DNA from: an uncultured Opitutia bacterium
GTDB taxonomy: Bacteria; Verrucomicrobiota; Verrucomicrobiia; Opitutales; Opitutaceae
Length of the DNA: 64,000 nucleotides
Assembly (NCBI GenBank): GCA_903862955.1
Contig: CAIPAH010000030.1
Coordinates: forward strand, 228,748-292,747
Direction of reading: 5' to 3'
Made by a program: the position numbers and the translations under genes. The notes under the pieces were generated by a model, which worked only from the letters and a program-made list of their open reading frames with translations, did not search any database and had not been told where the DNA came from. Positions 27,101 through 40,261 of this stretch are shown here, one piece after another; positions within the stretch are counted from its first letter, which is position 1; each line of letters opens with the position of its first letter.

Positions 27101-28366
27101 ATGTCCGACCCCGCCATCCCCGCCCGTGCTCCGCTGGTCGATGCGGGCCGCTCGCTTCGCCTGACGCTCGCCGCCGCATTTTTGGGCTGGATGTTTGACG
27201 GGCTCGAAATGGGCCTCTTTCCCCTCGTGGCGCGGCCGGCGCTGCTGCAAATGCGGGGCGGCGCGGTCAACGACGCCTTCGTCGGCCACTGGATGGGCAT
27301 CATCACCGCCGCCTTTCTCCTCGGCGCTGCCGTGGGCGGGCTCGCGTTCGGCTGGCTCGGCGACCGCGTGGGCCGCGTGCGCGCGCTGAGTTTGAGCGTG
27401 CTCACCTACTCGATCTTTACCGGGCTCGCCTACTTTGCGCAGACGCCGGAATACCTCGCCGTCACGCGCTTCTGCGCGGCGCTCGGCATGGGCGGTGAAT
27501 GGTCGCTCGGCGTCGCGCTCGTGATGGAAGTCTGGCCGGAAAAGTCCCGCCCGATGCTCTCCGGCATTATCGGTGCCGCGGCCAACGTCGGCTTCTCCCT
27601 CATTGCCATCATCGGGCTGTTTTTCTCGGTCACGGTGCATTCCTGGCGCTGGGTCGTCTTGGTGGGCGCGCTGCCCGCCCTGCTGACGTTCTTCATCCGC
27701 CAGTTCGTGCCGGAGTCGGAAAAATGGCGGCACGCTGCCGAGGGCGCGCCGGCGAAGCCCGTGAGGGAAATCTTCGCCCCCGGGCTCCGGCGTGTGACGC
27801 TGCTCGCCACGGGGCTCACGGCCATCGTGCTCATCGGCACCTGGGGAACGGTGCAATGGATCCCGCTCTGGGCCGACCAACTCACGGGCGGCGCGCAACC
27901 CCAGGCCAAGGCCTGGACCGGCTTGGTCGCCGGACTCGGCGCCATCTCGGGTTGCCTGGCGGGCGCGTGGGCCGGCGGACGGTTTGGCCGGCGCTTCACC
28001 TATTTCGGCATGTGCCTGGGATCGCTGGTGAGCTGCGCCGTGCTGTTCCGCGGCGGCATCGGCTACGGCGCGGGATTTCTGCTGCTGACGTTTATCGTCG
28101 GCGCGATGACGGCGTCATTTTTCGGCTGGCTCCCGCTGTATCTGCCGGAGCTGTTTCCCACGCGGGTGCGCGCGACCGCGCAAGGTCTTGCCTACAACGC
28201 CGGTCGCGTGCTCGCCGCTGCGGGCGCGCTGCAAATGGGCGCGCTCATGCGCCAGTTCAACGGCAGCTATGCGCAGGCCGGCGCGGTCATCACGCTGGTG
28301 TATGCGATCGGTCTGGGCCTGATCTGGCTCGCCCCGGAAACCAAGGGGCGCGTCCTTCCGGACTGA
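27101..28366 (+). CDS. MFS transporter
   Basis: 421 aa with about 12 hydrophobic segments. It has MFS loop motifs (GWLGDRVGRVR and GGRFGRR). Confidence 0.8.
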   Translation: MSDPAIPARAPLVDAGRSLRLTLAAAFLGWMFDGLEMGLFPLVARPALLQMRGGAVNDAFVGHWMGIITAAFLLGAAVGGLAFGWLGDRVGRVRALSLSVLTYSIFTGLAYFAQTPEYLAVTRFCAALGMGGEWSLGVALVMEVWPEKSRPMLSGIIGAAANVGFSLIAIIGLFFSVTVHSWRWVVLVGALPALLTFFIRQFVPESEKWRHAAEGAPAKPVREIFAPGLRRVTLLATGLTAIVLIGTWGTVQWIPLWADQLTGGAQPQAKAWTGLVAGLGAISGCLAGAWAGGRFGRRFTYFGMCLGSLVSCAVLFRGGIGYGAGFLLLTFIVGAMTASFFGWLPLYLPELFPTRVRATAQGLAYNAGRVLAAAGALQMGALMRQFNGSYAQAGAVITLVYAIGLGLIWLAPETKGRVLPD

Positions 28367-28448
28367 GTACTGCGGCCTGAGCCCCACTCGCGCCGCCCAA
28401 TCCCCCGAATCTCTGCCCGACCGACCCGGATCGGGAGATGAACTTTGT

Positions 28449-28462
28449 TTGACCTGCATCAA
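28449..28462. promoter_or_regulatory. FNR/Dnr-type box TTGACctgcATCAA upstream of nirK
   Basis: It matches the TTGAT-N4-ATCAA consensus at 9 of 10 positions. Its centre is about 58 nt upstream of the nirK ATG (28514). The flank (ATCAAGG) is identical to that of the box at 36301. Confidence 0.7.
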
Positions 28463-28513
28463 GGCGCGTTCCGCCCGCTTGCGTTAACCTGTGCCCATCA
28501 TCCCGTCCTCCGC

Positions 28514-30031
28514 ATGAAGATCCTCCGCTCACCCACTCCCGCACTCGCCCTCTTGTTCATGTTGGTCTCGATCGCGCCACCCGCCCGCGCCGACGAGGGT
28601 CCTCAGGACGCCAAAGGCCTTGTCGCACTCCCCGCCGAGGTCGAAGCCCTGCCCGTCGAGCAAGCCATCCTCACCAGCGCGCCCAACGTCCCGCCGCCCT
28701 TCAAGCGCAAGTATTCCGCGCGTGTCATCGTGAACCTCGAGGTCCGCGAGGTCGTCAAGAAGCTGGCCGATGGCGTCGAGTATACCTTCTGGACCTACGG
28801 CGGCAGCGTTCCCGGCAAGTTCATTCGCGTCCGCGAGGGCGACGTCATCGAGTTCCACCTCAACAACCACCCGTCGTCCAAGCTTCCGCACAACATCGAC
28901 CTCCACGCCGTCACCGGCCCCGGCGGCGGCGCGGCGTCGACGTTCACCGCTCCCGGCCACAGCTCGCAGTTCACCTTCCAGGCGCTCAATCCCGGCCTCT
29001 TCGTTTATCACTGCGCCACCGCGCCCGTGCCGATGCACATCGGCAACGGCATGTATGGCCTGATCCTCGTCGAGCCCAAGGAGGGCCTGCCGCCCGTGGA
29101 CCACGAATACTACGTGATGCAGGGCGAGTTCTACACGACGGGCCGCTACGGCGAGGAGGGTCTGCAGTCCTTCGACATGGCCAAGGCCATCGACGAGCGC
29201 CCGCCCTACGTCGTCTTCAACGGCGCGGTCGGTTCCCTCGTCGGCGACAAAGCCCTCACCGCCAAGGTCGGCGAGACTGTCCGCATCTACTTCGGCGTCG
29301 GTGGCCCCAACCTCACGTCGTCCTTCCATGTGATCGGCGAGATCTTCGACAAGGTCTACCCGGAGGCCGGTCTCAGCCTGCCCAATCGCAACGTGCAGAC
29401 GACCCTCGTCCCCTCGGGCGGTGCCACGGCGGTGGAGTTCAAGGTCGACGTGCCCGGCACGTTCATCCTCGTCGACCACTCACTGACCCGCGCGTTCAAC
29501 AAGGGCGCGCTCGGCATGCTCAAGGTCAGCGGCCCCGAAAACCGCGTCATCTACTCCGGCAAGGAAATCGACGCCGTTTACCTCGGCGCGCAGGCCGAGG
29601 AAGGCTCCGAGTCCGCCAAGCGTGAGGCCGAGCTCAAGGGCCGCATCGCCGAGGAGATCAAATCCAACCCCGCCATCGCCGGCCTCACCAAGGAAATGCA
29701 GGCCGAGAAGGGCAAGCAGGTCTTCATGGGCCTGTGCTTCGCCTGCCACCAACCGGACGGCAAGGGCCTGCCCGGCGCCTTCCCGCCCCTCGCCGGTTCC
29801 GACTTCCTGCTCGCCGACCAGGAGCGCGCCATCCGCATCGTGCTGAAGGGCCTCAACGGTCCCGTCACCGTCAACGGCACCACGATCAACAGCGTCATGC
29901 CCCCGCAGGAGGCCGTGCTGACCGACACGCAAATCGCGGACGTCCTGACCTACGTTTACAACGCGTGGGGCAACAAGGGCGACGCCATCAGCATCAGCCG
30001 GGTCCGCGCGATCCGCAACGAAACGCACTGA
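28514..30031 (+). CDS. nirK: copper-containing nitrite reductase with C-terminal class I cytochrome c domain
   Basis: The start was set to ATG 28514 ([26 protein letters not shown] signal). It has the Cu-ligand motifs HNIDLHAV and [18 protein letters not shown]. The C-terminal haem site is CFACHQ, with a distal Met region (NSVMPPQ). Confidence 0.9.
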
Positions 30032-30042
30032 GTTTCACTCCC

Positions 30043-30861
30043 GTGAACCTGCCGCTCGGACTTCTCCGTTTCCTGCTCCTCCTGCCGGCCTTGCCGGCGG
30101 GGGCCGCAGGCGGAGCCGCCGGCGTGTCCGAGTCCGGCATGATTCACGTGCCCGCGGGAAACTACGCCCCGCTGCTCCGCACGCCCAAGGACCCCGCCAC
30201 CGTCAGCGTGGCCGCCTTCCTGCTCGATGAGCGGCCCGTCACCAACGCGGAGTTTCTCACGTTCGTCACCGCCGAGCCGAAATGGCGGCGCTCCGCGATC
30301 AGCCCGCTGTTCGCCGATGCCTCCTACCTCGGACACTGGGCGGGCGACCTCGCTCCCGGTCCCAACGCCCCGGCCGACGCACCCGTCGTTCGCGTCTCCT
30401 GGTTCGCCGCGCGCGCCTACGCCCGCTGGGCCGGCAAGCGCCTGCCCACCACCGCCGAATGGGAGTTCACCGCCGGCGCGGGCTACACGCGGCCTGATGG
30501 CAAAAACGACGAGCAGCTCAACCGCGATCTCTACGCCTGGCTGGCGCGGCCCGTGCCCGCGGTGTTGCCGGCGGCCGGACGCGGCCGGCCCAATTTCTAC
30601 GGCGTGCGCGACCTCCACGGCCTCGTCTGGGAATGGGTCGAGGATTTCAACACCGCGATGGTCACCGGCGAATCCCGCGGCGACACCGGCCTCGAGCGTG
30701 ATCTGTTTTGCGGCGCCGGTTCCATTGGGGCCAAGGACACCACCGACTACGCAGCCTTCATGCGCCAGGCGCTGCGCTCCTCACTCAAGGCCAACAACAC
30801 CACCACGTCGCTCGGCTTTCGCTGCGCCCGCGATCTCCCCCAAAAACCGTTCCAGCCATGA
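30043..30861 (+). CDS. nirV: formylglycine-generating-enzyme (SUMF1) family protein, NirV-like
   Basis: A GTG start at 30043 gives a signal-like N-terminus (VNLPLGLLRFLLLLPALPAGAAG). It has FGE-sulfatase-like motifs (VSWFAARAYARWAGKRLPTTAEWEF, GLVWEWVEDF, LGFRCARD). It lies immediately downstream of nirK, as nirV does in other denitrifiers. Confidence 0.7.
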   Translation: MNLPLGLLRFLLLLPALPAGAAGGAAGVSESGMIHVPAGNYAPLLRTPKDPATVSVAAFLLDERPVTNAEFLTFVTAEPKWRRSAISPLFADASYLGHWAGDLAPGPNAPADAPVVRVSWFAARAYARWAGKRLPTTAEWEFTAGAGYTRPDGKNDEQLNRDLYAWLARPVPAVLPAAGRGRPNFYGVRDLHGLVWEWVEDFNTAMVTGESRGDTGLERDLFCGAGSIGAKDTTDYAAFMRQALRSSLKANNTTTSLGFRCARDLPQKPFQP

Positions 30862-31490
30862 AAGCCCAACTCGTCCTCTTTCTGTTCTCCGCGGCGTTCC
30901 TCGCTGCCGCCGAGAATACCCCCGTCCCGCCCGCCACTCCCGTCGCCTGCCCGCATTGCGCAGCCGCGGCGGCGGCTTCGGCGCCGGCCGCGTCGGCGTT
31001 TACCCGCGAGTCGATTTACCAACTCGACGCGAAGTTCACCGACGACTCCGGCCGGACGTTCACCCTCGGGGAACTCCGCGGCCGCCCCGTCGTGCTGGAC
31101 ATGTTCTTCGCCTCCTGCGGCTACGCCTGCCCGCTGCTCGTCACCGACATGCAGGCCATCCGAGGACGCCTGCCGGCTGCGCTGCGCGACCGCGCTGTGT
31201 TCGTTCTGGTGTCCTTCGACGTCACCCGCGACACGCCCGTCGCCCTCGCGCAGTATCGCGCGCAGCGCGCCCTCGATGGGCAGTGGCGGCTGTTGCACGG
31301 GGACGATGACTCAGTCCGCGAACTCGCCGCGTTGCTCGGCGTGAAATACCGGCAGGACTCCGACGGCATGTTTTCCCATTCCAACGTCATCACTATCCTT
31401 AACGCGCAGGGTGAGATCGTGCACCAGCGCATCGGCCTCAAGGGCGGACTCGATGAAGCCGCCGCCGCGCTCGCCGCCGCAACGAGGTGA
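30858..31490 (+). CDS. senC: SCO1/SenC family copper chaperone
   Basis: The start was set to ATG 30858 (MKAQLVLFLFSAAFLAAA), overlapping the nirV stop (ATGA). It has the C-x3-C-P motif CGYACP and a downstream His (FSHSNVI). Confidence 0.8.
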   Translation: MKAQLVLFLFSAAFLAAAENTPVPPATPVACPHCAAAAAASAPAASAFTRESIYQLDAKFTDDSGRTFTLGELRGRPVVLDMFFASCGYACPLLVTDMQAIRGRLPAALRDRAVFVLVSFDVTRDTPVALAQYRAQRALDGQWRLLHGDDDSVRELAALLGVKYRQDSDGMFSHSNVITILNAQGEIVHQRIGLKGGLDEAAAALAAATR

Positions 31491-31512
31491 GTCCACTCTC
31501 GGCCCCACTCCC

Positions 31513-31746
31513 ATGACCCCGACCAAATTTAAAACCTTCGACGTCCGCCCGCTGCTCGCCAAGGGCGAGGAACCCATCGCCTTGATCCGCGTCAAGGTGG
31601 ATGCGCTCACCACCGGCCACGGTCTCATCGTCGTCGCGCCGTTCATGCCGGCGCCGCTCATTGAGCTGCTCAAGAGCGAGGGCTTCCAGTCCACGTTGGA
31701 GCGCGGCGTGGACGGGAGCTGGGCCGTCAAATTTTGGAAGGAATAA
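31513..31746 (+). CDS. DUF2249 domain protein
   Basis: The start was set to ATG 31513, giving 77 aa (MTPTKFKTFDVRPLLAKGEEPIALIRVKVDAL...). Size and sequence resemble the DUF2249 family found in NO-stress and denitrification clusters. Confidence 0.6.
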   Translation: MTPTKFKTFDVRPLLAKGEEPIALIRVKVDALTTGHGLIVVAPFMPAPLIELLKSEGFQSTLERGVDGSWAVKFWKE

Positions 31747-31761
31747 CCCCGCCCCCTCGCC

Positions 31762-32115
31762 ATGAAGAAAAACACCCTGCTCTCGCCCACCGAAGCCGCC
31801 ACCTGCTCCCTGCTGGCGCCGGTCGAAAATGTCGCCCACGGCATCGTCAGCCGCGCGGTGCTCACGACGCCGGGGCTGCGCGTCACGCTCTTTCATTTCG
31901 CTCCGGGCCAGGAACTGTCCGAGCACACCAGCAAGGCCCGTGCGCTGATCCAGGCGCTGGCGGGCACCTGCGTTTTCACCGTCGGCACCACGATCCACAC
32001 GCTCAAGCCCGGCGACCTGCTGCATCTCCCGCCCGGCGCCCCGCACGCCATGACCGCGCCCGAGGGCTGCAGCATGCTGCTCACGCAGGTAACGGAAGCC
32101 GGAGCTGCAGGTTAA
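31762..32115 (+). CDS. cupin domain protein
   Basis: 117 aa. It has cupin motif-like segments (FHFAPGQELSEHT and GDLLHLPPGAPHAM). Confidence 0.7.
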   Translation: MKKNTLLSPTEAATCSLLAPVENVAHGIVSRAVLTTPGLRVTLFHFAPGQELSEHTSKARALIQALAGTCVFTVGTTIHTLKPGDLLHLPPGAPHAMTAPEGCSMLLTQVTEAGAAG

Positions 32116-32190
32116 TCGCGGAAACGCGAAAGACCGGAAGCGCGGAAGACAGATCTCTCTTTAGCCGGAAGCCAGGAAAGCAGGAATTCT

Positions 32191-32220
32191 GTAGGGCGGG
32201 GTCGCCGAACCCCGCCCTGA
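32191..32220. terminator. GC hairpin (agggcgggg / ccccgccct, 8-nt loop) between convergent cupin and pdxH genes
   Basis: It has a 9-bp perfect stem at 32193-32201 and 32210-32218 and no U-tract. It sits in a 164-nt gap that also holds relic repeat fragments. Confidence 0.45.
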
Positions 32221-32279
32221 GGTTCTCGAACTCCCGGAGGCCCAAATCTCCGTGGCTTTGCGCCTTTGCGTGACCACCC

Positions 32280-32876
32280 TCAGGGAAAAATCCGCTGCGA
32301 GGCCCAGCCGGCGCCCGTCCACGTGTAGAGCACGCGCTCGTGGAGCCGAAACGGCTTCTCGTGCCAGAATTCAATGCTCTCCGGCGCGAGCCGGAAGCCG
32401 GACCAGTGCGGCGGCCGGGGAATCTTGCCCACCCCGAAACGCAGCGCCTCCGCAGCGCAATTTTTCTCCAGCTCGAACCGGTCTGCCATCGGACGCGACT
32501 GGTGCGACGCCCATGCGCCGAGCTGGCTGAGCCGAGCGCGCGACGCGAAATAAGCGTCGGCCTCGGCGTCGCTCACGGGCTTGACGGGACCCGTGACGCG
32601 CACCTGCCGCTTGATCTGGTTCCAGTAAAAGCACAGCGCCGCGCGCGGCCGGGCCGCGAGTTCGTGCGCCTTCGGGCTCTCCAGGTTCGTGTAGAATACG
32701 AAACCGCGCTCGTCGACGCCCTTGAGCAGCAGCATCCGCACGTTCGGGGCGCCGGACGCGTCCGCCGTCGCCACCGCCATGGCCGTGGGCTCCGGCACGC
32801 CGCCCTTTTCAGCCTCCGCGAACCAGGCGCTAAACTGCGCGATCGGATCCTCGCCGGTGCATGGGGGCGTGCTCAT
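32280..32876 (-). CDS. pdxH: pyridoxamine 5'-phosphate oxidase
   Basis: ATG 32876 ([15 protein letters not shown]) is preferred over the tracked TTG at 32894. It has RMLLLKG, FVFYTN and the C-terminal [14 protein letters not shown] motif typical of PdxH. Confidence 0.85.
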
Positions 32877-32918
32877 GGCTGGATGATGGCGCAAATCCGC
32901 GCCCGAGGGAAGCGTGGG

Positions 32919-35432
32919 TTAGGGCAGCTCGCAGGCGCCGCCGGCGCACGCGACGACGTCCTTGAGCTTCGTCTCGTCGGTGTGCTCCACGAGCGACGTG
33001 TAGTTCACCGGCACGTATTTCAGGCGGTTCCACTTCGCCACGTCGTCCTCCGTCGCCACGGCCTCGCGCGGCGCCTGGGGATAGTGCTTGTCGCCCTCGT
33101 AGCCGAGCAACGCCACGCCAGTGAAATGCTCGCGGTGTTCCCAGATGAACTCGCCCACGCGGTCCCACTCGCCCGGCTTGACCGTGCAGGTGTTGGACAC
33201 GTTGTGATGCAGCCCCGGCGAACGGTTGTGCTCCGCCTCGCCGCCCAGCACCCAGTGCTGCTGGACGAGTTGCACCGCCTGCAGGAATTCCACGGCTCCG
33301 ACCTCATCGCGCAGGATCGCGTGCGGTGGCGCCTCGACGGCAAACGTGATGACGTCGTCCGTGTCGGGCCGGTAAACCGAGGCCTCCGTGAGCTGCGAGT
33401 TGCTCTGCTTGAAATGCCGGTAGATCGGGTCGTGCCGGCTCGCCTGCACGCGGCGGAAATAATGCCGCGCGTGGTGCGGGTGGATGCCGGAGGCGGCGCC
33501 GAGCAGCAGCGATGCCGTGCCCTCAGGTTTCACACACGTGACACGCGTCGCCGGCCGGATGCCAAGCGCGCGGGCGACGATCTGGTTGGCGGCCCGGCAC
33601 AGGCGGGCGCCGCGCTCAAGGACGTCGGGGTTGAACAGGATCTCGGGGTTGTCCATGAAGCCGCAAATTGAGACGCCCAGCAGCGCGTCGCGCTCGTTGA
33701 GGTAGCGCGTGACGGGCCCGAGATACGCGATGTCGGTGTAGGCCGCCTGGAGCGTGCCGATGACGGCCGCGTGGATGCAGGCGACGAGGAAATCATCCGC
33801 GGTCTGCAGCACGGCGCCGTTGATCGTGCTGAGATTGCACATTTGCCAGCCGCTGAGGCGCGTTTCGGGGCCCAGCGGTCCCTCGTAGCCGAGGGCACGG
33901 AGGCGGGCGGTCTCGACCTCGTCGAGCGGGCCCTCGATGACAGGATGCAGCCCGATCTCGCAGCAGGGGTTGCAGCCATAATCGGGATGGTCGGCAAAAT
34001 AGAAACCGGGCTCGCCAAACTCCTTCTGCGCCGCAAACAGCCGGCGGAAGAGCGTGTCATCCGGCCGCGAGCGCGGCAGCACGGCGGAGTTATTGGACGC
34101 CGAGCGCTGCGGGTTCTTCTCGAACCAATTGCCGGTCTTGGCGCCCATCATTTCCTCGTCGTCGGGGGAAAACAGGCAGATCGTCGCCGAACGCCGGATG
34201 CCGCCGCTGAGCACGGAGCGCGCGGCATACATGCAGATGTCGTAGACCTCGATCGGGCGGAGTCGCCGGCCGGAAGCGCCGGCGAGGACGCCCTCGATAT
34301 CGAGCAGCGCCTGCTTCAGTGGCAGGTGGCCGGGAGCCTTGCCGCCAGAGGTTACCAGCGCGCGGCCGCGGGGGCGGACTTGGGAAAAATTGAACTCCGC
34401 CTTGAAGTGCTCGTAGTGGCTCAGCATCAGCACGTGGAGCGCGCCGGCCCAGCCCTCGATCGTGTCGCCGACGGTGTGATGCACGACGACGAGATCCATT
34501 TCCTCGCCGCGCACGGGCAGCACGGGCAGCCGGTCGGTGTGGTGCCGCTGCACGGAAAAGCCGCAGCCCGTGCCGGCCAACAGCAGGAACAGGTATTCGC
34601 GGAAAAACTCGAGGCGGTCCACCGGGCTGAACGCGCAATTGAACAGCCGGGCGTGGTTGCGGAGGATGGCTTCCCCGCCGAACTGCAGCGAGCGCATCGA
34701 CGGCAGCACGCGCTTCTGACCCACTGCGCCGTAAGCGCGATGAATCGCGTCGCCCAGTGTCCCGCCCGTCAGCCATTCGGACAGCAGCCGGCGGTCCGAG
34801 GGCCGCGCCGGTGAATCGTCGCCGGGCGGGGGCAGGCGCTGCGCGAGCAGCGGGTGAAAATGCTCCAGGTGCATCTCGAGCACGCGGCGCGCGGCCTCGA
34901 CGAACGTCTCACGCCGGCCGAGGTCGCGGCGGTAGCGGGCGTATTTGGCGCAGGCGATGTAGTCGCTCAGGCCGTTCTCCGGATAATGTGCCAGGCGATG
35001 CTGCGCCTTAAGCCCGCGGTAAATGATATAGGCGCGTGCCACCTCCCACTCGCCCTCGGCGGCGATCGCCTTCTCCACGTTGTCCTGGATCTGCTCGATC
35101 GTCGGGTGCCGGCCCGAGCGATAGTAAAGCTCGAGCATCCGCGCCACGCGCGAGGTGATCAGCTGGACCTTGTGGAATGAATCCCCGTCCAGGCCGAAGC
35201 AAGCCGTCGCGTCCTCCCGGTTGGGATTCGGCGCGGCATCGTGTGTCACCTCGTAGTAGGCGAGGGCGACGGCGCGGGTGATCTTGCTGGCGTCCCACGG
35301 CACCAAGGTGCCGTCCCGCTTGACGACGCAGCGGTCGGCGGGGGCGATGGCGGTGGTGGGAGTGGCGCGGGGGTTGAGGCGGGCGAGAAGGGAGGAGGTG
35401 GCGGAGGTCATGCGGAAAGGAGCGGAGAGCAT
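32919..35432 (-). CDS. nrdJ: adenosylcobalamin-dependent (class II) ribonucleotide reductase, RTPR-like, with N-terminal ATP-cone
   Basis: 837 aa (alternative ATG at 35411). It has an ATP-cone-like VVKRDGTLVPWDASKITRAV and an active-site-like GCNPCCEIGL. The C-terminal redox pair CAGGACELP resembles the C-x4-C tail of the Lactobacillus-type triphosphate reductase. The subclass assignment is from memory, not from a search. Confidence 0.75.
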   Translation of the reverse strand: MLSAPFRMTSATSSLLARLNPRATPTTAIAPADRCVVKRDGTLVPWDASKITRAVALAYYEVTHDAAPNPNREDATACFGLDGDSFHKVQLITSRVARMLELYYRSGRHPTIEQIQDNVEKAIAAEGEWEVARAYIIYRGLKAQHRLAHYPENGLSDYIACAKYARYRRDLGRRETFVEAARRVLEMHLEHFHPLLAQRLPPPGDDSPARPSDRRLLSEWLTGGTLGDAIHRAYGAVGQKRVLPSMRSLQFGGEAILRNHARLFNCAFSPVDRLEFFREYLFLLLAGTGCGFSVQRHHTDRLPVLPVRGEEMDLVVVHHTVGDTIEGWAGALHVLMLSHYEHFKAEFNFSQVRPRGRALVTSGGKAPGHLPLKQALLDIEGVLAGASGRRLRPIEVYDICMYAARSVLSGGIRRSATICLFSPDDEEMMGAKTGNWFEKNPQRSASNNSAVLPRSRPDDTLFRRLFAAQKEFGEPGFYFADHPDYGCNPCCEIGLHPVIEGPLDEVETARLRALGYEGPLGPETRLSGWQMCNLSTINGAVLQTADDFLVACIHAAVIGTLQAAYTDIAYLGPVTRYLNERDALLGVSICGFMDNPEILFNPDVLERGARLCRAANQIVARALGIRPATRVTCVKPEGTASLLLGAASGIHPHHARHYFRRVQASRHDPIYRHFKQSNSQLTEASVYRPDTDDVITFAVEAPPHAILRDEVGAVEFLQAVQLVQQHWVLGGEAEHNRSPGLHHNVSNTCTVKPGEWDRVGEFIWEHREHFTGVALLGYEGDKHYPQAPREAVATEDDVAKWNRLKYVPVNYTSLVEHTDETKLKDVVACAGGACELP

Positions 35433-35515
35433 AGTCCGCCCGCACCCACGCCGCTAACCATTCCTTGCTAAAGGATGGAAATCTTTGCGCATAATTTGTG
35501 ACGCACCGCGCGAAA

Positions 35516-36253
35516 TCAGTTTCGCCCGCTCAACGCGAGCGCGCGCGGGAAGAGAATGTTGTTTTCCTTGTGCACGTGGCGGTGCAGGTCCGCCTCGAAC
35601 TCGGCCAGCCCGGCCAGCAGCGCGCGGTGCGTGTTGCACGCGTCCGCGCCCGGCGTGAAGCCGTCGGTCAGCTCCCGCAGCTCCGCCGTCACCTGGCCCG
35701 CGGACTCGTGCTCGGCTTCCATCACGCGGATCGGATTGGCAATGGAACCGCAGTGAAAACCGCCGTCCGCCGCCCCGGCTTCGAGCTCCCGCACGAGCGG
35801 GAAGAGGATGCCCTCCTCCTTCTGCATGTGACTCAGCATCTCATTCGCCAGCGCCACGACGCGCTCATTCACGAGGGGCAGACGGGCGTCGCGCCACTCG
35901 TGCTTGCGGGCGACGCGCCCGGCCATCTCGACCAGACGCGGGAGCTCCGACTTGAGGTAAGTGTGGTGCGTCTGCTCGATGTGGTCCGCCAGCTGCGTCA
36001 GGGTCAGCGCCGTCACATCCACGTCGAGCGGCCCCGCCTCGATGACGGCTGCCGCCGCTTCCAACATGGCTTGCACGATGTGCGGTTCGAGATCCTTGGC
36101 GCGGCAGGCGGTGGCGAGGGACTGTTTGCCGCCGCAGCAGTAGTCGAGGCCGAGTTTCTCAAAAACGCGGGCAAAAGCCGGGCGGGCGGCGACGATGGCG
36201 CCGAGGGTGGTGTCCGCGCTGAAGCGCGGCGTGGAGGGGGAGTCGGTGATCAT
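35516..36253 (-). CDS. ytfE: iron-sulfur cluster repair di-iron protein (RIC/YtfE/ScdA/DnrN family)
   Basis: 245 aa. It has the N-terminal ScdA_N-like LDYCCGG motif and hemerythrin-like His/Glu-rich repeats (HHTYLKSELP, HVHKENNILFP). Confidence 0.85.
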   Translation of the reverse strand: MITDSPSTPRFSADTTLGAIVAARPAFARVFEKLGLDYCCGGKQSLATACRAKDLEPHIVQAMLEAAAAVIEAGPLDVDVTALTLTQLADHIEQTHHTYLKSELPRLVEMAGRVARKHEWRDARLPLVNERVVALANEMLSHMQKEEGILFPLVRELEAGAADGGFHCGSIANPIRVMEAEHESAGQVTAELRELTDGFTPGADACNTHRALLAGLAEFEADLHRHVHKENNILFPRALALSGRN

Positions 36254-36300
36254 GGTGGGGTGGTTCGCGCTGACTTTGCCACGAACCGCCGCGGGTCGCC

Positions 36301-36314
36301 TTGTCCTGGATCAA
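36301..36314. promoter_or_regulatory. FNR/Dnr-type box TTGTCctggATCAA in the divergent ytfE / dnr-like promoter region
   Basis: It matches TTGAT-N4-ATCAA at 8 of 10 positions. Its centre is about 54 nt upstream of the ytfE ATG (36253). The tracked ORF start at 36301 is the TTG of this box, so the regulator gene must start downstream. Confidence 0.7.
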
Positions 36315-36345
36315 GGAATTCCCCGGCGGCATTTTCGGCGGGACT

Positions 36346-37098
36346 ATGCCCCGGGCGGCCCCTTCACTGTCGCCTGCGATGCCGACCCGTCCGCGCCCCG
36401 CCGATCTCAAGCTCACCGGCCTCACCGGCACACTGCGCTGCTGCCAACTTTTCACCGGGTTGTCGGCGGAGGATCTGGGCATCATCGCCGGCTTCACCAT
36501 CGTCCAAAAGCTCGCCAAGGACGACTACCTGTTTCGCGAGGGCGAGCAGTCGCGGGGGCTCTATCTCGTGCAAAGTGGCGCCATCAACGTCCACCGCGTC
36601 AACGTGGCCGGCAAGGAGCAGGTGATTCACATCTTCCGCGCCGGCGAATCGTTTGCCGAGGCCGCCCTCGCCTCCCCCACGGGCTATCCCGCCGACGCCC
36701 GCGCTGTCGAGCCGAGCACCGTTCTCGTCATTCCCAAGGCGCCCATCCTCGAGCTGATCGGCCGCCGCCCGGACCTGGCCCTGCGCATGCTCGGCTCGAT
36801 GAGCAGTCACCTGCGAGTGCTCGTGGGCATGCTGGACGACCTCACGCTGAAGGATGTGGAGACGCGGATGCTCAACTGGCTGGTGAAGCACAGCCGGGCC
36901 GCCCGAGGGGGCTCCATTCACCTGCCTGGCACGAAGCGCGTGCTGGCCGCCGAGTTGGGCACGAGCAGCGAGACCCTCTCGCGCACCCTCGGCCGGCTGC
37001 GGGACAGGAAGCTGATTTCAGTCTCGGGCAAAGTCATTGCGATCCACGACCTGCCCGCCCTGCAGGCCATGCTCCGCCGTAATCTCGGGGAAACCTGA
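36346..37098 (+). CDS. Crp/Fnr-family transcriptional regulator, Dnr/NnrR-like
   Basis: The start is at ATG 36346, or possibly 36379. It has a cNMP-binding-like fold (YLFREGEQSRGLYLVQSGAINVH). The recognition helix ELGTSSETLSRTLGRL carries the E--SR motif that reads TTGAT half-sites. There is no FNR-type N-terminal Cys cluster. Confidence 0.8.
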   Translation: MPRAAPSLSPAMPTRPRPADLKLTGLTGTLRCCQLFTGLSAEDLGIIAGFTIVQKLAKDDYLFREGEQSRGLYLVQSGAINVHRVNVAGKEQVIHIFRAGESFAEAALASPTGYPADARAVEPSTVLVIPKAPILELIGRRPDLALRMLGSMSSHLRVLVGMLDDLTLKDVETRMLNWLVKHSRAARGGSIHLPGTKRVLAAELGTSSETLSRTLGRLRDRKLISVSGKVIAIHDLPALQAMLRRNLGET

Positions 37099-37102
37099 CC
37101 TG

Positions 37103-37130
37103 GCTGTCAGCGATCAGCTGTCAGCGATGA
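37103..37130. repeat. 14-nt tandem direct repeat x2 (gctgtcagcgatca gctgtcagcgatga)
   Basis: Read directly from the sequence, 13/14 identity. It lies immediately after the regulator stop (37096-37098). Confidence 0.7.
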
Positions 37131-37186
37131 GTAGCTGCGAGCGTGAGCGAGTGGATCAGCCTCCGCTCGCTCACGCTCGCAGCTAC
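37131..37186. repeat. perfect 21-bp inverted repeat with 14-nt loop (gtagctgcgagcgtgagcgag / ctcgctcacgctcgcagctac); probable terminator or REP-like element
   Basis: Arms are 37131-37151 and 37166-37186. There is no U-tract. Confidence 0.8.
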
Positions 37187-37215
37187 AAAGCTCCCGCCCG
37201 CCCGCGGTCACACGA

Positions 37216-37229
37216 TTGAACCAAATCAC
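37216..37229. promoter_or_regulatory. FNR/Dnr-like box TTGAAccaaATCAC upstream of the membrane-protein gene
   Basis: It matches TTGAT-N4-ATCAA at 8 of 10 positions. Its centre is about 47 nt upstream of ATG 37270. The tracked ORF start at 37216 is the TTG of this motif. Confidence 0.5.
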
Positions 37230-37269
37230 GCTCGCGCGAGCCGGGACGGACAGCCATGCTGTCGGGTTC

Positions 37270-37968
37270 ATGTCAGCAGATCCGTCCCTTTCCTCCCCGC
37301 CCGAAGCCCCGTGGCATGCCGGCCTGCGCGCTGCGCGCGCCAACCTGCTGCCCGGCCTCCTCCTGCAGGCCGTCGCCCTGGCCTTGGTGCTGGCCTATTA
37401 CTGGCACCCGCCGACGCGCGCGTTGTTCGAGCAGCTGATCACGCTGCGCCAGCGGACCGGCGTGCTCTTTTCAATCATCGCGACCTCGCTCTGCGGCGGG
37501 GTGCTGCCGTTCATTTACATGCGGTCGCAGCCCGAAACGGGTTCCCGCTTCACGTGGGCCAGCGGGCTGTTTTTCACGCTCTTCTGGGCCTACAAGGGCG
37601 TCGAAGTGGATCTCTGGCAGCGCGCCCTCGCCCATTTCGTCGGGAATGACACCCGCGTCACCACCGTCGCACTCAAGGTTTTCCTCGACCAGTTCGTCTA
37701 CTGCCCGATTTGGGCCGTCTTCGTGACGGTCATCGCCTACAACTGGCAGAGCGCCGGCTTCCGGTGGGCGCCGTTGATGGCGGATTTCCGGGCCGGCCAA
37801 TGGTATCAGCGGCAGATCCTGCCCGCGTTGGTCGCCAACCTCGGGCTCTGGGTGCCGCTCACCGTCCTCATCTTCGCCCTGCCGTTGCCGCTGCAACTTC
37901 CGCTGTTCGATCTCGCGCTGGTGTTTTACACGCTTTTGATCGCGCATATCACGCGCCGGAAGGTCTAA
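37270..37968 (+). CDS. integral membrane protein (Mpv17/PMP22-like, function unknown)
   Basis: The start is at ATG 37270 (MSADPSLSS...). It has several hydrophobic segments. The weak family resemblance (LDQFVYCPIWAVFV, LWVPLTVLIF) is recalled only. Confidence 0.55.
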   Translation: MSADPSLSSPPEAPWHAGLRAARANLLPGLLLQAVALALVLAYYWHPPTRALFEQLITLRQRTGVLFSIIATSLCGGVLPFIYMRSQPETGSRFTWASGLFFTLFWAYKGVEVDLWQRALAHFVGNDTRVTTVALKVFLDQFVYCPIWAVFVTVIAYNWQSAGFRWAPLMADFRAGQWYQRQILPALVANLGLWVPLTVLIFALPLPLQLPLFDLALVFYTLLIAHITRRKV

Positions 37969-38059
37969 CTATCTTCGCCGCGTCCGGGGGGCGGGCTGAA
38001 CCGTAGGATTTTGGGGAATCTTTGCCTTCCCGCTGGCCTCCCACACAATCCCTCCACCC

Positions 38060-40261
38060 ATGAAGCTGCCCCGTTTCATCCTGCGCTGGCCGCGCGGGCT
38101 CCTCAGCGCCTGCACCCTCTTCCTGGCGGCCGCGCTGCCTTCCGCCCAAGCCGTCGAAAGCCACGTGCACGCGTCGCTCGTCGCCGCCGACGCCTCCATC
38201 CAACCCGGCAAGCCCTTCACCGTCGCGTTGCGCTTCCAGCACGACCCGCATTGGCACACCTACTGGTTGAATCCCGGCACCGGCCTGCCGACATCACTCG
38301 CCTGGCATCTGCCCCCCGGTTTCACCGCCGGCGAAATCCAGTGGCCCGCACCGAAGCTGCTCATCGACAACTCCGGCGGCATCATCGGCAACGGTTACGA
38401 GGGCGAACTCTTCCTCCCCGTCACGATCACCCCACCCGCCGACCTGAAACCTGGCACCACTGTCGAACTCGTCGCCGACGCCGACTGGCTGATGTGCGAG
38501 GAAATCTGCGTGCCGGGGAAGGCCACGGTAAAACTGTCGCTGCCGGTTTCCCCAGACGCGCCGCAGACCGACTCCACGTGGGGCGCAAAGATCCGCGCCA
38601 CCCTCGCCGGCCTGCCGCGCGCTGATGCCGAGTGGAAGGTCGCGGCCGCGCGCGATGCCAAGAACGTCACCCTCAGTGTGAATTTCACCGGTGTTGTCGC
38701 CGGCAAGCGCGCGTGGCCGTCCCATCTCCATTTCTTTTCAGACGACAGCCTCGTGGCCTTCGACCAGCCCCAAACCGTCGTCGAAAAAGATTACGTCGGC
38801 CGCTACGTGATCGCTCTGCCCATTTCCCCGGATGGCCCGAAGGATGCCGCTAAGCTGCTCGGCGTGCTCACCTCCGACACCGGCTGGCTCGCCGACGGCT
38901 CGTCTCGTGGCCTCCGGGTCGAAGTTCCGTTGGGCGCTCCCAGCAGTCAGTCGTCAGCGACCGAAGCGCCGCGTTTTGCTGCAACCAAAGCGGGCGAAAG
39001 CGGCACACCGATCGCCTCCCCGCCCCCTACCAGCGGGCTTGGCGGCACCCTCCTTCTCGCCCTCGTCGGCGGCATGATCCTGAACCTCATGCCCTGCGTC
39101 TTCCCCGTGCTCGGGATCAAGATTCTCGGATTCGTGAACCAGGCCGGCCACGAGCGCGGCAAGGTCGTCGCCCACGGCCTGACGTTCGCCTCGGGCGTGC
39201 TGCTGTCCTTCTGGACACTCGCCGCCGTGCTCGCCGTGCTGCGGGCCGGCGGCAGCCACCTGGGCTGGGGCTTCCAACTGCAGTCGCCCGCGTTCGTCTT
39301 CGTCCTCGCCGCGGCCATGCTCATTTTCGGCCTGAACATGAGCGGCCTGTTTGAAATCGGGCTCAGCGCCACGTCGGTCGGCGGCGACTTGCAGACAAAG
39401 ACCGGTTTCGCCGGCTCGTTCTTCACCGGCGTGCTCGCCACCGTCGTCGCCACGCCCTGCTCCGCGCCCTTCCTCGCCCCGGCACTCGGTGCGGCGCTGG
39501 CGCTCTCGACGGCGCAGTCGTTCGCCATCTTCACCGCCATCGCGATCGGACTCGCGCTGCCCTACCTGCTGCTCTCGATCTTTCCCGCCGCCGTGAAGGT
39601 GCTGCCGCGACCCGGCGCGTGGATGGAAACGTTCAAGCAGTTCATGGCCTTCCCGCTCTATGCGACCGTTGGCTACCTCGTGTGGGTGCTGGCCGGACAG
39701 ACCAGTGACGAAGGCCTGCAGAACGTCCTCTTCGGCCTCGTGCTCGTCGCGATGGGCATCTGGGTTTACGGCCGCTGGAACGCCCCCGGCGCGTCCGTCG
39801 GCCGCACGCGCTTCGGCGTGGCCGGGCTCGTCGTGCTCGGAGCCGCCGGCCTGTGGCTGGGCTGGCCGCAGAGCGCCGCGGCCAAGGCCGCCGCCGCGCA
39901 ATCCTCCACCGCGCCCGAGGTGGTCTGGGACAAATGGAGCCCCGAGGCCGTGGCGAAGTTGCGCAGCGAGAACCGGATTATCTACGTCGACTTTACCGCG
40001 CGCTGGTGCGCCACGTGCCAGGCCAACAAGAAACTCGTGTTCCACAACGACGAGGTCCTGAAGTATTTCCACGATCACCAGATCGCCACGCTGCGCGGTG
40101 ACTGGACCAACCAGGACCCGGCCATCACGGCCGAGCTGGCGAAATACCAGCGCAGCGCCGTGCCGTTCAACTTGATCTGGATGCCCGGCAAAGACGCGCC
40201 GATCCTGCTCCCCGAACTGCTCACGCCCGGCACGGTGCTCGGCGCGCTGCGGGGGAAGTAA
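38060..40261 (+). CDS. dsbD: DsbD/ScsB-like thiol:disulfide interchange protein (N-terminal periplasmic domain, CcdA-like membrane core, C-terminal thioredoxin)
   Basis: 733 aa. It has a signal peptide, the CEEICVPG motif, membrane-core cysteines (LMPCVFPVLG and ATPCSAPFLAP) and a C-terminal thioredoxin WCATC. Confidence 0.8.
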   Translation: MKLPRFILRWPRGLLSACTLFLAAALPSAQAVESHVHASLVAADASIQPGKPFTVALRFQHDPHWHTYWLNPGTGLPTSLAWHLPPGFTAGEIQWPAPKLLIDNSGGIIGNGYEGELFLPVTITPPADLKPGTTVELVADADWLMCEEICVPGKATVKLSLPVSPDAPQTDSTWGAKIRATLAGLPRADAEWKVAAARDAKNVTLSVNFTGVVAGKRAWPSHLHFFSDDSLVAFDQPQTVVEKDYVGRYVIALPISPDGPKDAAKLLGVLTSDTGWLADGSSRGLRVEVPLGAPSSQSSATEAPRFAATKAGESGTPIASPPPTSGLGGTLLLALVGGMILNLMPCVFPVLGIKILGFVNQAGHERGKVVAHGLTFASGVLLSFWTLAAVLAVLRAGGSHLGWGFQLQSPAFVFVLAAAMLIFGLNMSGLFEIGLSATSVGGDLQTKTGFAGSFFTGVLATVVATPCSAPFLAPALGAALALSTAQSFAIFTAIAIGLALPYLLLSIFPAAVKVLPRPGAWMETFKQFMAFPLYATVGYLVWVLAGQTSDEGLQNVLFGLVLVAMGIWVYGRWNAPGASVGRTRFGVAGLVVLGAAGLWLGWPQSAAAKAAAAQSSTAPEVVWDKWSPEAVAKLRSENRIIYVDFTARWCATCQANKKLVFHNDEVLKYFHDHQIATLRGDWTNQDPAITAELAKYQRSAVPFNLIWMPGKDAPILLPELLTPGTVLGALRGK

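Follow-up and report, generated by a model that had tools for sequence, protein, structure and literature searches.

Among Crp/Fnr-family regulators, DNR and HcpR1 form one cluster, and the FNR cysteines are missing from both (PMC1274295). Consensus boxes are CTTGATnnnnATCAAG for DNR of beta-proteobacteria and wyTTGACnnnnGTCAArw for HcpR1; nirK and dnrN (ytfE) are recurrent targets, and HcpR regulates dnrN (ytfE) in some species (PMC1274295). The boxes of FNR, ANR and DNR are almost indistinguishable (PMC1274295; PMC8510549). In the present study, we analysed 64,000 nucleotides (nt) of DNA, hereafter called the window, from an uncultured Opitutaceae bacterium of the phylum Verrucomicrobiota (GCA_903862955.1, contig CAIPAH010000030.1, positions 228,748-292,747 of the forward strand), which carry nirK, ytfE and a gene for a Dnr-like regulator of the Crp/Fnr family. 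A first-pass annotation of the same DNA had reported three FNR/Dnr-type boxes here, called boxes 1, 2 and 3 below. It is highly likely, in our view, that this part of an Opitutaceae genome forms the core of a Dnr-type regulon, with box 1, box 2 and a fourth box at position 31582 as its sites in the window and the product of the adjacent regulator gene as the most likely binder. In the literature searched, we found neither a described Dnr regulon in Verrucomicrobia or Opitutaceae nor a description of how Opitutaceae control the production and detoxification of nitric oxide (NO).

The motif of this clade, which reads cTTGA-yCyrGr-TCAAg in the weight matrix described below, is intermediate between the DNR and HcpR1 consensus sequences. 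With the regulon of the NO-responsive activator DNR in Pseudomonas aeruginosa, P. stutzeri and beta-proteobacteria, the locus shares the palindrome, C/G flanks included, a regulator of like domain architecture with an E--SR helix and without the cysteines for an Fe-S cluster, and targets that include nirK and a repair protein of the dnrN/ytfE type. Unlike the DNR regulon, the present one belongs to a verrucomicrobial host, its regulator does not conserve H139 and H187 at the positions aligned to them, and the window contains no nor or nos genes. To the DNR regulon, the clade adds nrdJ, the DUF2249/cupin genes, a truncated globin, nrfH and a membrane protein of 480 amino acids (aa). The commonest half-site here, TTGAC/GTCAA, is like that of HcpR1 from delta-proteobacteria (Geobacter, Desulfuromonas), but unlike in the HcpR1 regulon, no hcp or frdX was seen near the regulator gene. 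The class II promoters of Escherichia coli FNR have TTGAT-N4-ATCAA at -41.5, a -10 at fixed spacing and no -35, to which the box and the predicted promoter geometry here are identical, whereas the regulator of the window has neither the N-terminal Cys cluster nor the internal Cys of FNR. By its targets alone, the locus can also be likened to the NnrR regulon of alpha-proteobacteria (nirK-nirV, nor, nnrS), with which it shares an operon of the nirK-nirV type; nirV follows nirK in Rhodobacter sphaeroides as well. The half-sites of the NnrR box differ, being of the TTGCG type. The scheme itself is of the well-known FNR/DNR type, and our results extend its range to a little-studied phylum and leave the understanding of it unchanged.

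All three boxes reported earlier were found at the positions given for them. Box 1, TTGACctgcATCAA (TTGACCTGCATCAA), lies at 28449-28462, centred 58.5 nt 5' of the nirK ATG at 28514; box 2, TTGTCctggATCAA (TTGTCCTGGATCAA), at 36301-36314, is centred 54.5 nt from the ytfE ATG at 36253 on the minus strand; and box 3, TTGAAccaaATCAC (TTGAACCAAATCAC), at 37216-37229, is centred 47.5 nt from the ATG of a membrane-protein gene at 37270. These distances agree with the 47-58 nt claimed previously, and the labels nirK operon and ytfE/regulator divergon are also correct by the gene map. To the consensus TTGAT-N4-ATCAA, box 1 has one mismatch and boxes 2 and 3 have two each. Two of the boxes had been described as buried inside coding sequences by an open reading frame caller that starts at TTG 36301 and TTG 37216. 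Such starts do occur in the mechanical list of open reading frames, but only there: public gene calls for identical DNA start at ATG 36379 (239 aa) and ATG 37270 (232 aa), and boxes 2 and 3 are thus intergenic in practice.

A chance origin of all the boxes in a GC-rich genome, with no regulon behind them, has to be considered first, since counts made in the window are weak. With up to two mismatches, TTGAT-N4-ATCAA occurs 20 times (6.8 expected), and with up to one mismatch twice (0.49 expected). The palindromic core TTGA-N6-TCAA with up to one mismatch is found 14 times against 8.9 expected, a number reached by 6 of 100 shuffles. Window statistics alone do not place the boxes above chance, and the decision comes from comparative evidence; the consensus counts are too weak to separate the three boxes, and footprinting was therefore used instead.

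For footprinting, 80 related loci were collected by a search with the regulator protein (71-87% identity). All of them are from Opitutaceae or other Verrucomicrobiota, and Lacunisphaera, Oleiharenicola, Didemnitutus and Cephaloticoccus are among the sources. Because the gene order round the regulator gene is highly variable, these loci are well suited to the purpose. A perfect TTGA-N6-TCAA core was present 5' of ytfE in all 46 orthologous loci, both in those with ytfE divergent from the regulator gene and in those with ytfE on its downstream side. Directly 5' of nirK, the box was found in 16 of the 20 loci; three of the remaining four have a strong box about 1 kb upstream, which in one locus (L014) precedes a YwiC-like gene that comes before nirK. 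Upstream of the control genes nirV, dsbD, pdxH, senC and MFS, the best matches have three to five mismatches, except for one senC region with two. The identical regulator protein is present on many metagenome contigs, and the window is matched exactly across 2.7 kb by two independent assemblies, both of which have box 2 as the TTGTC variant.

A clade weight matrix of 22 nt was then trained on 58 distinct sites of ytfE and nirK, none of them from the window, and its scores were judged against second-order Markov simulations. In 1.28 Mb of simulated sequence, about 0.6 sites score 17 bits or more, compared with 143 in the real loci, and 64 kb of it contain about 2.4 sites of 4.5 bits or more. 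In the window, the site at 31582 scored 26.4 bits, box 1 24.5 bits and box 2 20.8 bits; the next best match had 9.5 bits, and box 3 ranked eighth with 4.5 bits. Judged by these rates, boxes 1 and 2 score well beyond what chance would give, and box 3 does not rise above background. The palindromic core is perfect in box 1 and in the 31582 site, and boxes 2 and 3 have one core mismatch each. All three strong sites of the window are located within 8 kb of the regulator gene. The earlier claim that the three boxes define a local regulon therefore survives for boxes 1 and 2, which are conserved and high-scoring, but not for box 3, which is at background and not conserved.

A box-anchored alignment of the 143 strong sites revealed the architecture of the promoters. 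In 118 of these, a hexamer xAnnnT begins exactly 29.5 nt from the box centre, whereas at any other offset it is seen in about 8 (2-16) of the 286 oriented sequences. With the ytfE box in 46 of 46 loci and 143 strong sites against 0.6 expected, this fixed -10 effectively refutes the chance reading. If the hexamer is placed at -12 to -7, the box centre falls at -41.5, which is class II geometry. A GGC flank follows the box on the transcribed side. The -10 is TAnnnT for nirK, cupin, DUF2249, porin, YwiC, globin, CopD, nitronate monooxygenase, the 480-aa protein and the UbiA gene, and at ytfE it takes the extended form tGTGc-xAxagT. In the window, the proxy for the class II offset is present at box 1, at box 2 on the ytfE side and at 31582, and is absent at box 3. 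A scan of 28000-38500 for the sigma-70 -35/-10 consensus predicted no promoters; this is uninformative alone and is compatible with activator-dependent promoters without a -35. The class II geometry with short leaders that had been suggested for all three boxes is thus supported for boxes 1 and 2, with predicted leaders of about 17 nt for nirK and about 13 nt for ytfE, and fails for box 3, which has no -10 at the right spacing.

From the sites, their conservation and geometry, the identities of the genes and the family of the regulator, all of which were established computationally, we infer a scheme for binding, activation and signal. A dimeric activator of the Crp/Fnr family would bind cTTGA-yCyrGr-TCAAg centred 41.5 bp 5' of the transcription start of its target promoters. 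In each of these a -10 can be made out (TAnnnT, or TGn-xAnnnT in the extended form) and a -35 is lacking, and transcription should therefore depend on the activator. Box 1 would drive nirK-nirV-senC-DUF2249-cupin, box 2 would drive ytfE with possible read-through into nrdJ-pdxH, and the lineage-specific 31582 box would probably give the cupin gene a promoter inside the operon. The product of 36379-37098, encoded beside box 2, would be the likeliest binder, and the signal would most likely be NO or nitrite-derived stress under low oxygen, perceived via a cofactor such as haem.

Box 1 (28449-28462, plus strand) is the predicted activator site of the nirK operon promoter. The predicted -10, TAACCT at 28485-28490 on the plus strand, falls in alignment columns 42-47, where nirK orthologues have TAnnnT, and the transcription start is predicted near 28497. 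The operon is on the plus strand. Its first gene, nirK (28514-30031), encodes a copper nitrite reductase to which a cytochrome c domain is fused at the C terminus (TIGR02376, 355.9 bits, cut-off 296.3; Pfam domains Cu-oxidase and Cytochrom_C). It is followed, as in related loci, by a nirV-like gene with an FGE-sulfatase domain (30043-30861; PF03781, E 8.6e-34), and then by genes for an SCO1/SenC copper chaperone (30860-31490; PF02630, E 1.8e-15), a DUF2249 protein of 77 aa (31513-31746; PF10006, E 5.2e-13, full length) and a cupin (31762-32115; Cupin_2, PF07883), the last of which is a regulon member in sister lineages.

The best-scoring site in the window, TTGATCCGCGTCAA at 31582-31595 on the plus strand, had been overlooked by the first-pass annotation. 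It is a candidate internal promoter site, lying within codons 23-28 of the DUF2249 gene, 173 nt 5' of the cupin ATG, and CACGGT at 31618-31623 has class II spacing from it. None of the 55 DUF2249 orthologues has a box at these codons. The orthologues read CTG ATC CGC GCG CGC GTC and the window reads TTG ATC CGC GTC AAG GTG, and three lineage-specific codon changes (a synonymous one to TTG, Ala to Val, and Arg to Lys) make the box. Sister lineages have a separate box with TAnnnT for the cupin gene, or for the DUF2249-cupin pair, in an intergenic spacer; the spacer between DUF2249 and cupin in the window is only 15 nt. The simplest reading of these sequences is that the 31582 box is probably an internal promoter for the cupin gene that arose through site turnover.

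Box 2 (36301-36314, no strand assigned) lies in the ytfE/regulator divergon and is the predicted activator site of the ytfE promoter. The predicted extended -10, TGgCAAAGT at 36281-36273 on the minus strand, corresponds to the block tGTGc-xAxagT, which is conserved at a fixed distance from the box in an alignment of 47 sequences including the window; the transcription start is predicted near 36266. ytfE itself (35516-36253, minus strand) encodes YtfE/RIC, a di-iron protein for the repair of iron-sulfur clusters (TIGR03652, 220.7 bits against a cut-off of 204.7), with the domains ScdA_N (PF04405) and hemerythrin (PF01814). In many of the loci L014-L078, in which ytfE is downstream of the regulator gene, the ytfE ATG is only 5-7 nt past the -10 hexamer, and this short distance suggests that the ytfE mRNAs of this sub-clade may be leaderless.

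Downstream of ytfE, also on the minus strand, are nrdJ (32919-35432; Pfam and NCBIfam matches), encoding a B12-dependent (class II) ribonucleotide reductase with an ATP-cone, and, downstream of it, pdxH (32280-32894; PF01243, PF10590), encoding a pyridoxamine 5'-phosphate oxidase. nrdJ is 83 nt from ytfE, and no terminator-like site was predicted in the gap. Read-through from box 2 into nrdJ may thus occur. In six related loci, nrdJ has a box to itself, and in five of these a -10-like hexamer is found at the class II offset or no more than 1 nt away from it. The gap also contains a conserved element upstream of nrdJ, AAATTATGCGCAAAGATTT ... GCAAGGAATGGTTAGCGG (about 55 nt; 35446-35500, minus strand), which is present in most loci whatever the neighbouring gene. 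It is not similar to an FNR box and has no match in Rfam, and it may serve nrdJ specifically, as a promoter, an operator or a leader. A riboswitch or other known RNA was considered for the region 5' of nrdJ and for the intergenic regions; there was no credible Rfam match, the only ones being microRNA models on a 25-bp hairpin (see below) and one weak match of a small RNA model in the membrane-protein gene.

The regulator gene (36379-37098, plus strand) encodes 239 aa with the domains cNMP_binding (PF00027) and HTH_Crp_2 (PF13545). Its start, MPTRPRPADLKL, is conserved in orthologues as MPxxPRPADxKL. Starts at ATG 36346 and TTG 36301 were rejected, as orthologues conserve MPxxPRPAD from ATG 36379 and the public call is 239 aa; a product of 250 aa was not found among the public gene calls. 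Among solved structures, DNR of P. aeruginosa is the best relative (3dkw, E 1.2e-22, 84 bits), followed by Aliivibrio FNR (about 3e-17, 66 bits), NtcA, CRP (about 1e-12) and FixK2 (33 bits). No NCBIfam model reaches its cut-off on the regulator, the Fnr model scoring 75 bits against 228. As had been noted before, the protein has the recognition helix SETLSR, which aligns with PETFSR of DNR and is of the E--SR type that reads TTGA boxes, and it has no FNR Cys cluster. Its only cysteines are the adjacent C21 and C22, kept in 94% and 81% of the 80 orthologues, respectively. Because the N-terminal cluster and the internal Cys are absent, it is not an oxygen sensor of the FNR [4Fe-4S] type. It is a possible member of the DNR subgroup in the strict sense.

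Several observations weigh against the proposed regulon. No relative conserves the 31582 site, which has a weak -10, CACGGT. Box 2 (TTGT) is the sole one of 47 ytfE boxes with a core mismatch, and may for this reason be weakened. Towards the regulator gene, box 2 has no -10 at class II spacing, which makes autoregulation of the regulator doubtful. In a pairwise alignment, H139 and H187, the candidate haem ligands of P. aeruginosa DNR, correspond to Arg146 and a Glu; conserved ligands thus lend no support to haem/NO sensing, and the sensed signal has to be deduced indirectly. Finally, at least one genome has a second paralogue, as L028 and L001, two close regulator paralogues, come from the same metagenome-assembled genome (CAYHEW01), and an FNR/ANR-type protein encoded elsewhere could share the box.

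The last point bears on a quite unlikely alternative, that the boxes are real but are read by another Crp/Fnr protein, either an oxygen-sensing one of the FNR/ANR type or a paralogue, and that the response is mainly to anoxia. The near identity of the FNR, ANR and DNR boxes (PMC1274295; PMC8510549) would allow it, as would the paralogue pair; moreover, nrdJ, an oxygen-independent reductase, and the UbiA-family gene for a haem O synthase-like protein fit a low-oxygen response. However, in 65 of the 80 loci one or more strong boxes lie no further than 10 kb from the regulator gene despite many rearrangements, the three strong sites of the 64-kb window all cluster near it, its recognition helix is of the TTGA-reading type, and no protein with an FNR-type cysteine cluster was seen within the window. 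These observations favour the product of the adjacent gene as the binder. The paralogue of L028 is 81% identical to the regulator of the window, and no strong box was found within 10 kb of it.

As to the signal, the gene content leads us to infer that the regulator senses NO. nirK and RIC/YtfE fit a response to NO or nitrite, as do the globin, nrfH and nitronate monooxygenase genes of the relatives. His72 and His144 are invariant and His84 is present in 79 of the 80 orthologues; H144 is two residues from the position of H139, and a shifted haem ligand is possible on the basis of this alignment. The earlier designation as an NO-responsive activator of the Dnr/NnrR type thus agrees with the best solved relative and with the gene content, but not with the haem histidines of DNR, which are not conserved at the aligned positions.

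The upstream region of the regulator gene contains another conserved element, cATTTTc-N6-GACT (36330-36347, plus strand), which is present in each of the two divergent arrangements, its distance from the box being variable. A role of box 2 as a class II site of the regulator gene was rejected, with GGCGGG at the -10 position and this other element conserved there. cATTTTc-N6-GACT is probably a promoter or operator that belongs to the regulator gene itself and is independent of the box, or a site of another factor.

Box 3 (37216-37229, plus strand) was rejected as a site of the regulator and looks like a chance resemblance. A very unlikely alternative is that it is genuine, a weak site gained recently, in which case the membrane-protein gene would be part of the regulon solely in this lineage. 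The lineage-specific 31582 box illustrates that sites do turn over here; box 3 is at a plausible distance from the ATG, and the membrane-protein gene is downstream of the regulator gene in 17 of the 80 loci, in some directly and in others with genes between. However, the low score of box 3 is one for which about 2.4 sites are expected by chance in 64 kb, and the box has a core mismatch (TCAC), no c...g flanks, no ggc flank, and AGCCAT where xAnnnT is expected. The box is missing from all 17 orthologous upstream regions. Upstream DNA of the closest orthologues (73-75% identity) can be aligned with that of the window; it lacks the left half-site TTGAA, and AAATCAC, the right half of box 3 in the window, aligns to a different conserved element, CAAAACAC-nCTgGCGcG. 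Box 3 is therefore best left out of the regulon.

This element, CAAAACAC-nCTgGCGcG, is located at 37225-37240 in the window and is also found in L003, L004, L009 and L046, about 40-50 nt 5' of the ATG of the membrane-protein gene. It overlaps the right half of box 3 and may act as the true promoter or operator here. The membrane-protein gene (37270-37968, plus strand) encodes 232 aa, and the family of the protein is uncertain. The label Mpv17-like given to it previously could not be upheld, because PF04117 matches below the gathering score only (E 0.056, 13.9 bits against a cut-off of 27). Among the 17 orthologues, 10 have sub-threshold matches, the best with E 0.0039, and the sequences are thus those of possibly a remote relative of Mpv17/PMP22. 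Between the regulator gene and the membrane-protein gene, a perfect GC-rich hairpin of 25 bp is predicted by folding (37131-37186, plus strand). The intergenic stretch of 117 nt that holds it (37099-37215) has a minimum free energy of -74.3 kcal/mol (z -8.3). No U-tract follows the hairpin, and a similar arm sequence was found in locus L008; the hairpin may be a terminator or an insulator, or a repeat like the repetitive extragenic palindromic (REP) elements.

In the related loci, the same geometry was found upstream of further targets, namely DUF2249, cupin, nrdJ, truncated globin, nrfH, nitronate monooxygenase, CopD-like and YwiC-like genes, and also of genes for an alginate-export-type porin, a UbiA-family protein and the 480-aa membrane protein. 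No homologues of the 480-aa protein, the UbiA-family protein, the porin, YwiC, globin, CopD, nrfH or nitronate monooxygenase were found in the window. The 480-aa protein, which is polytopic with His-rich motifs, and the UbiA-family haem O synthase-like protein form a pair. In related loci, but not in the window, their genes are divergent under -41.5 boxes (for example, L001 6484-8970, L002 6067-8699 and L003 6627-9117), and several loci have two boxes, one per direction. The 480-aa protein has no similarity in Pfam, NCBIfam or the PDB. No nor gene was seen in the stretches examined of nirK-bearing Verrucomicrobiota. One unlikely reading would make the regulator, without the haem histidines of DNR but with histidines 72, 84 and 144, a distinct NO or redox sensor and not a true DNR, with the 480-aa/UbiA pair as a possible unrecognised haem enzyme for NO handling, and with a regulon that evolves quickly by site turnover, to the point of making the full-strength box at 31582 within a coding sequence. 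The Dnr-type regulon set out above is the reading that we prefer.

Soils, lakes and wastewater all have abundant Opitutaceae, many of which carry nirK. The present analysis yields a clade-specific motif, a promoter architecture and a list of targets for the annotation of these mostly uncultured genomes, and the list of targets points to candidate genes for NO handling. The more novel leads are the histidine pattern that differs from that of DNR, the box created within a coding sequence, and the 480-aa protein with its UbiA partner.

On the gene map, the region is flanked by genes for an MFS transporter (27101-28366) and DsbD (38060-40261), both on the plus strand. A palindromic hairpin, GTAGGGCGGGGTC...GACCCCGCCC(TAC), is found at 32190-32225 in the gap between the convergent cupin and pdxH genes. 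A near-identical copy is present in L009, 5' of its membrane-protein gene, and because of this recurrence the element looks REP-like in these genomes.

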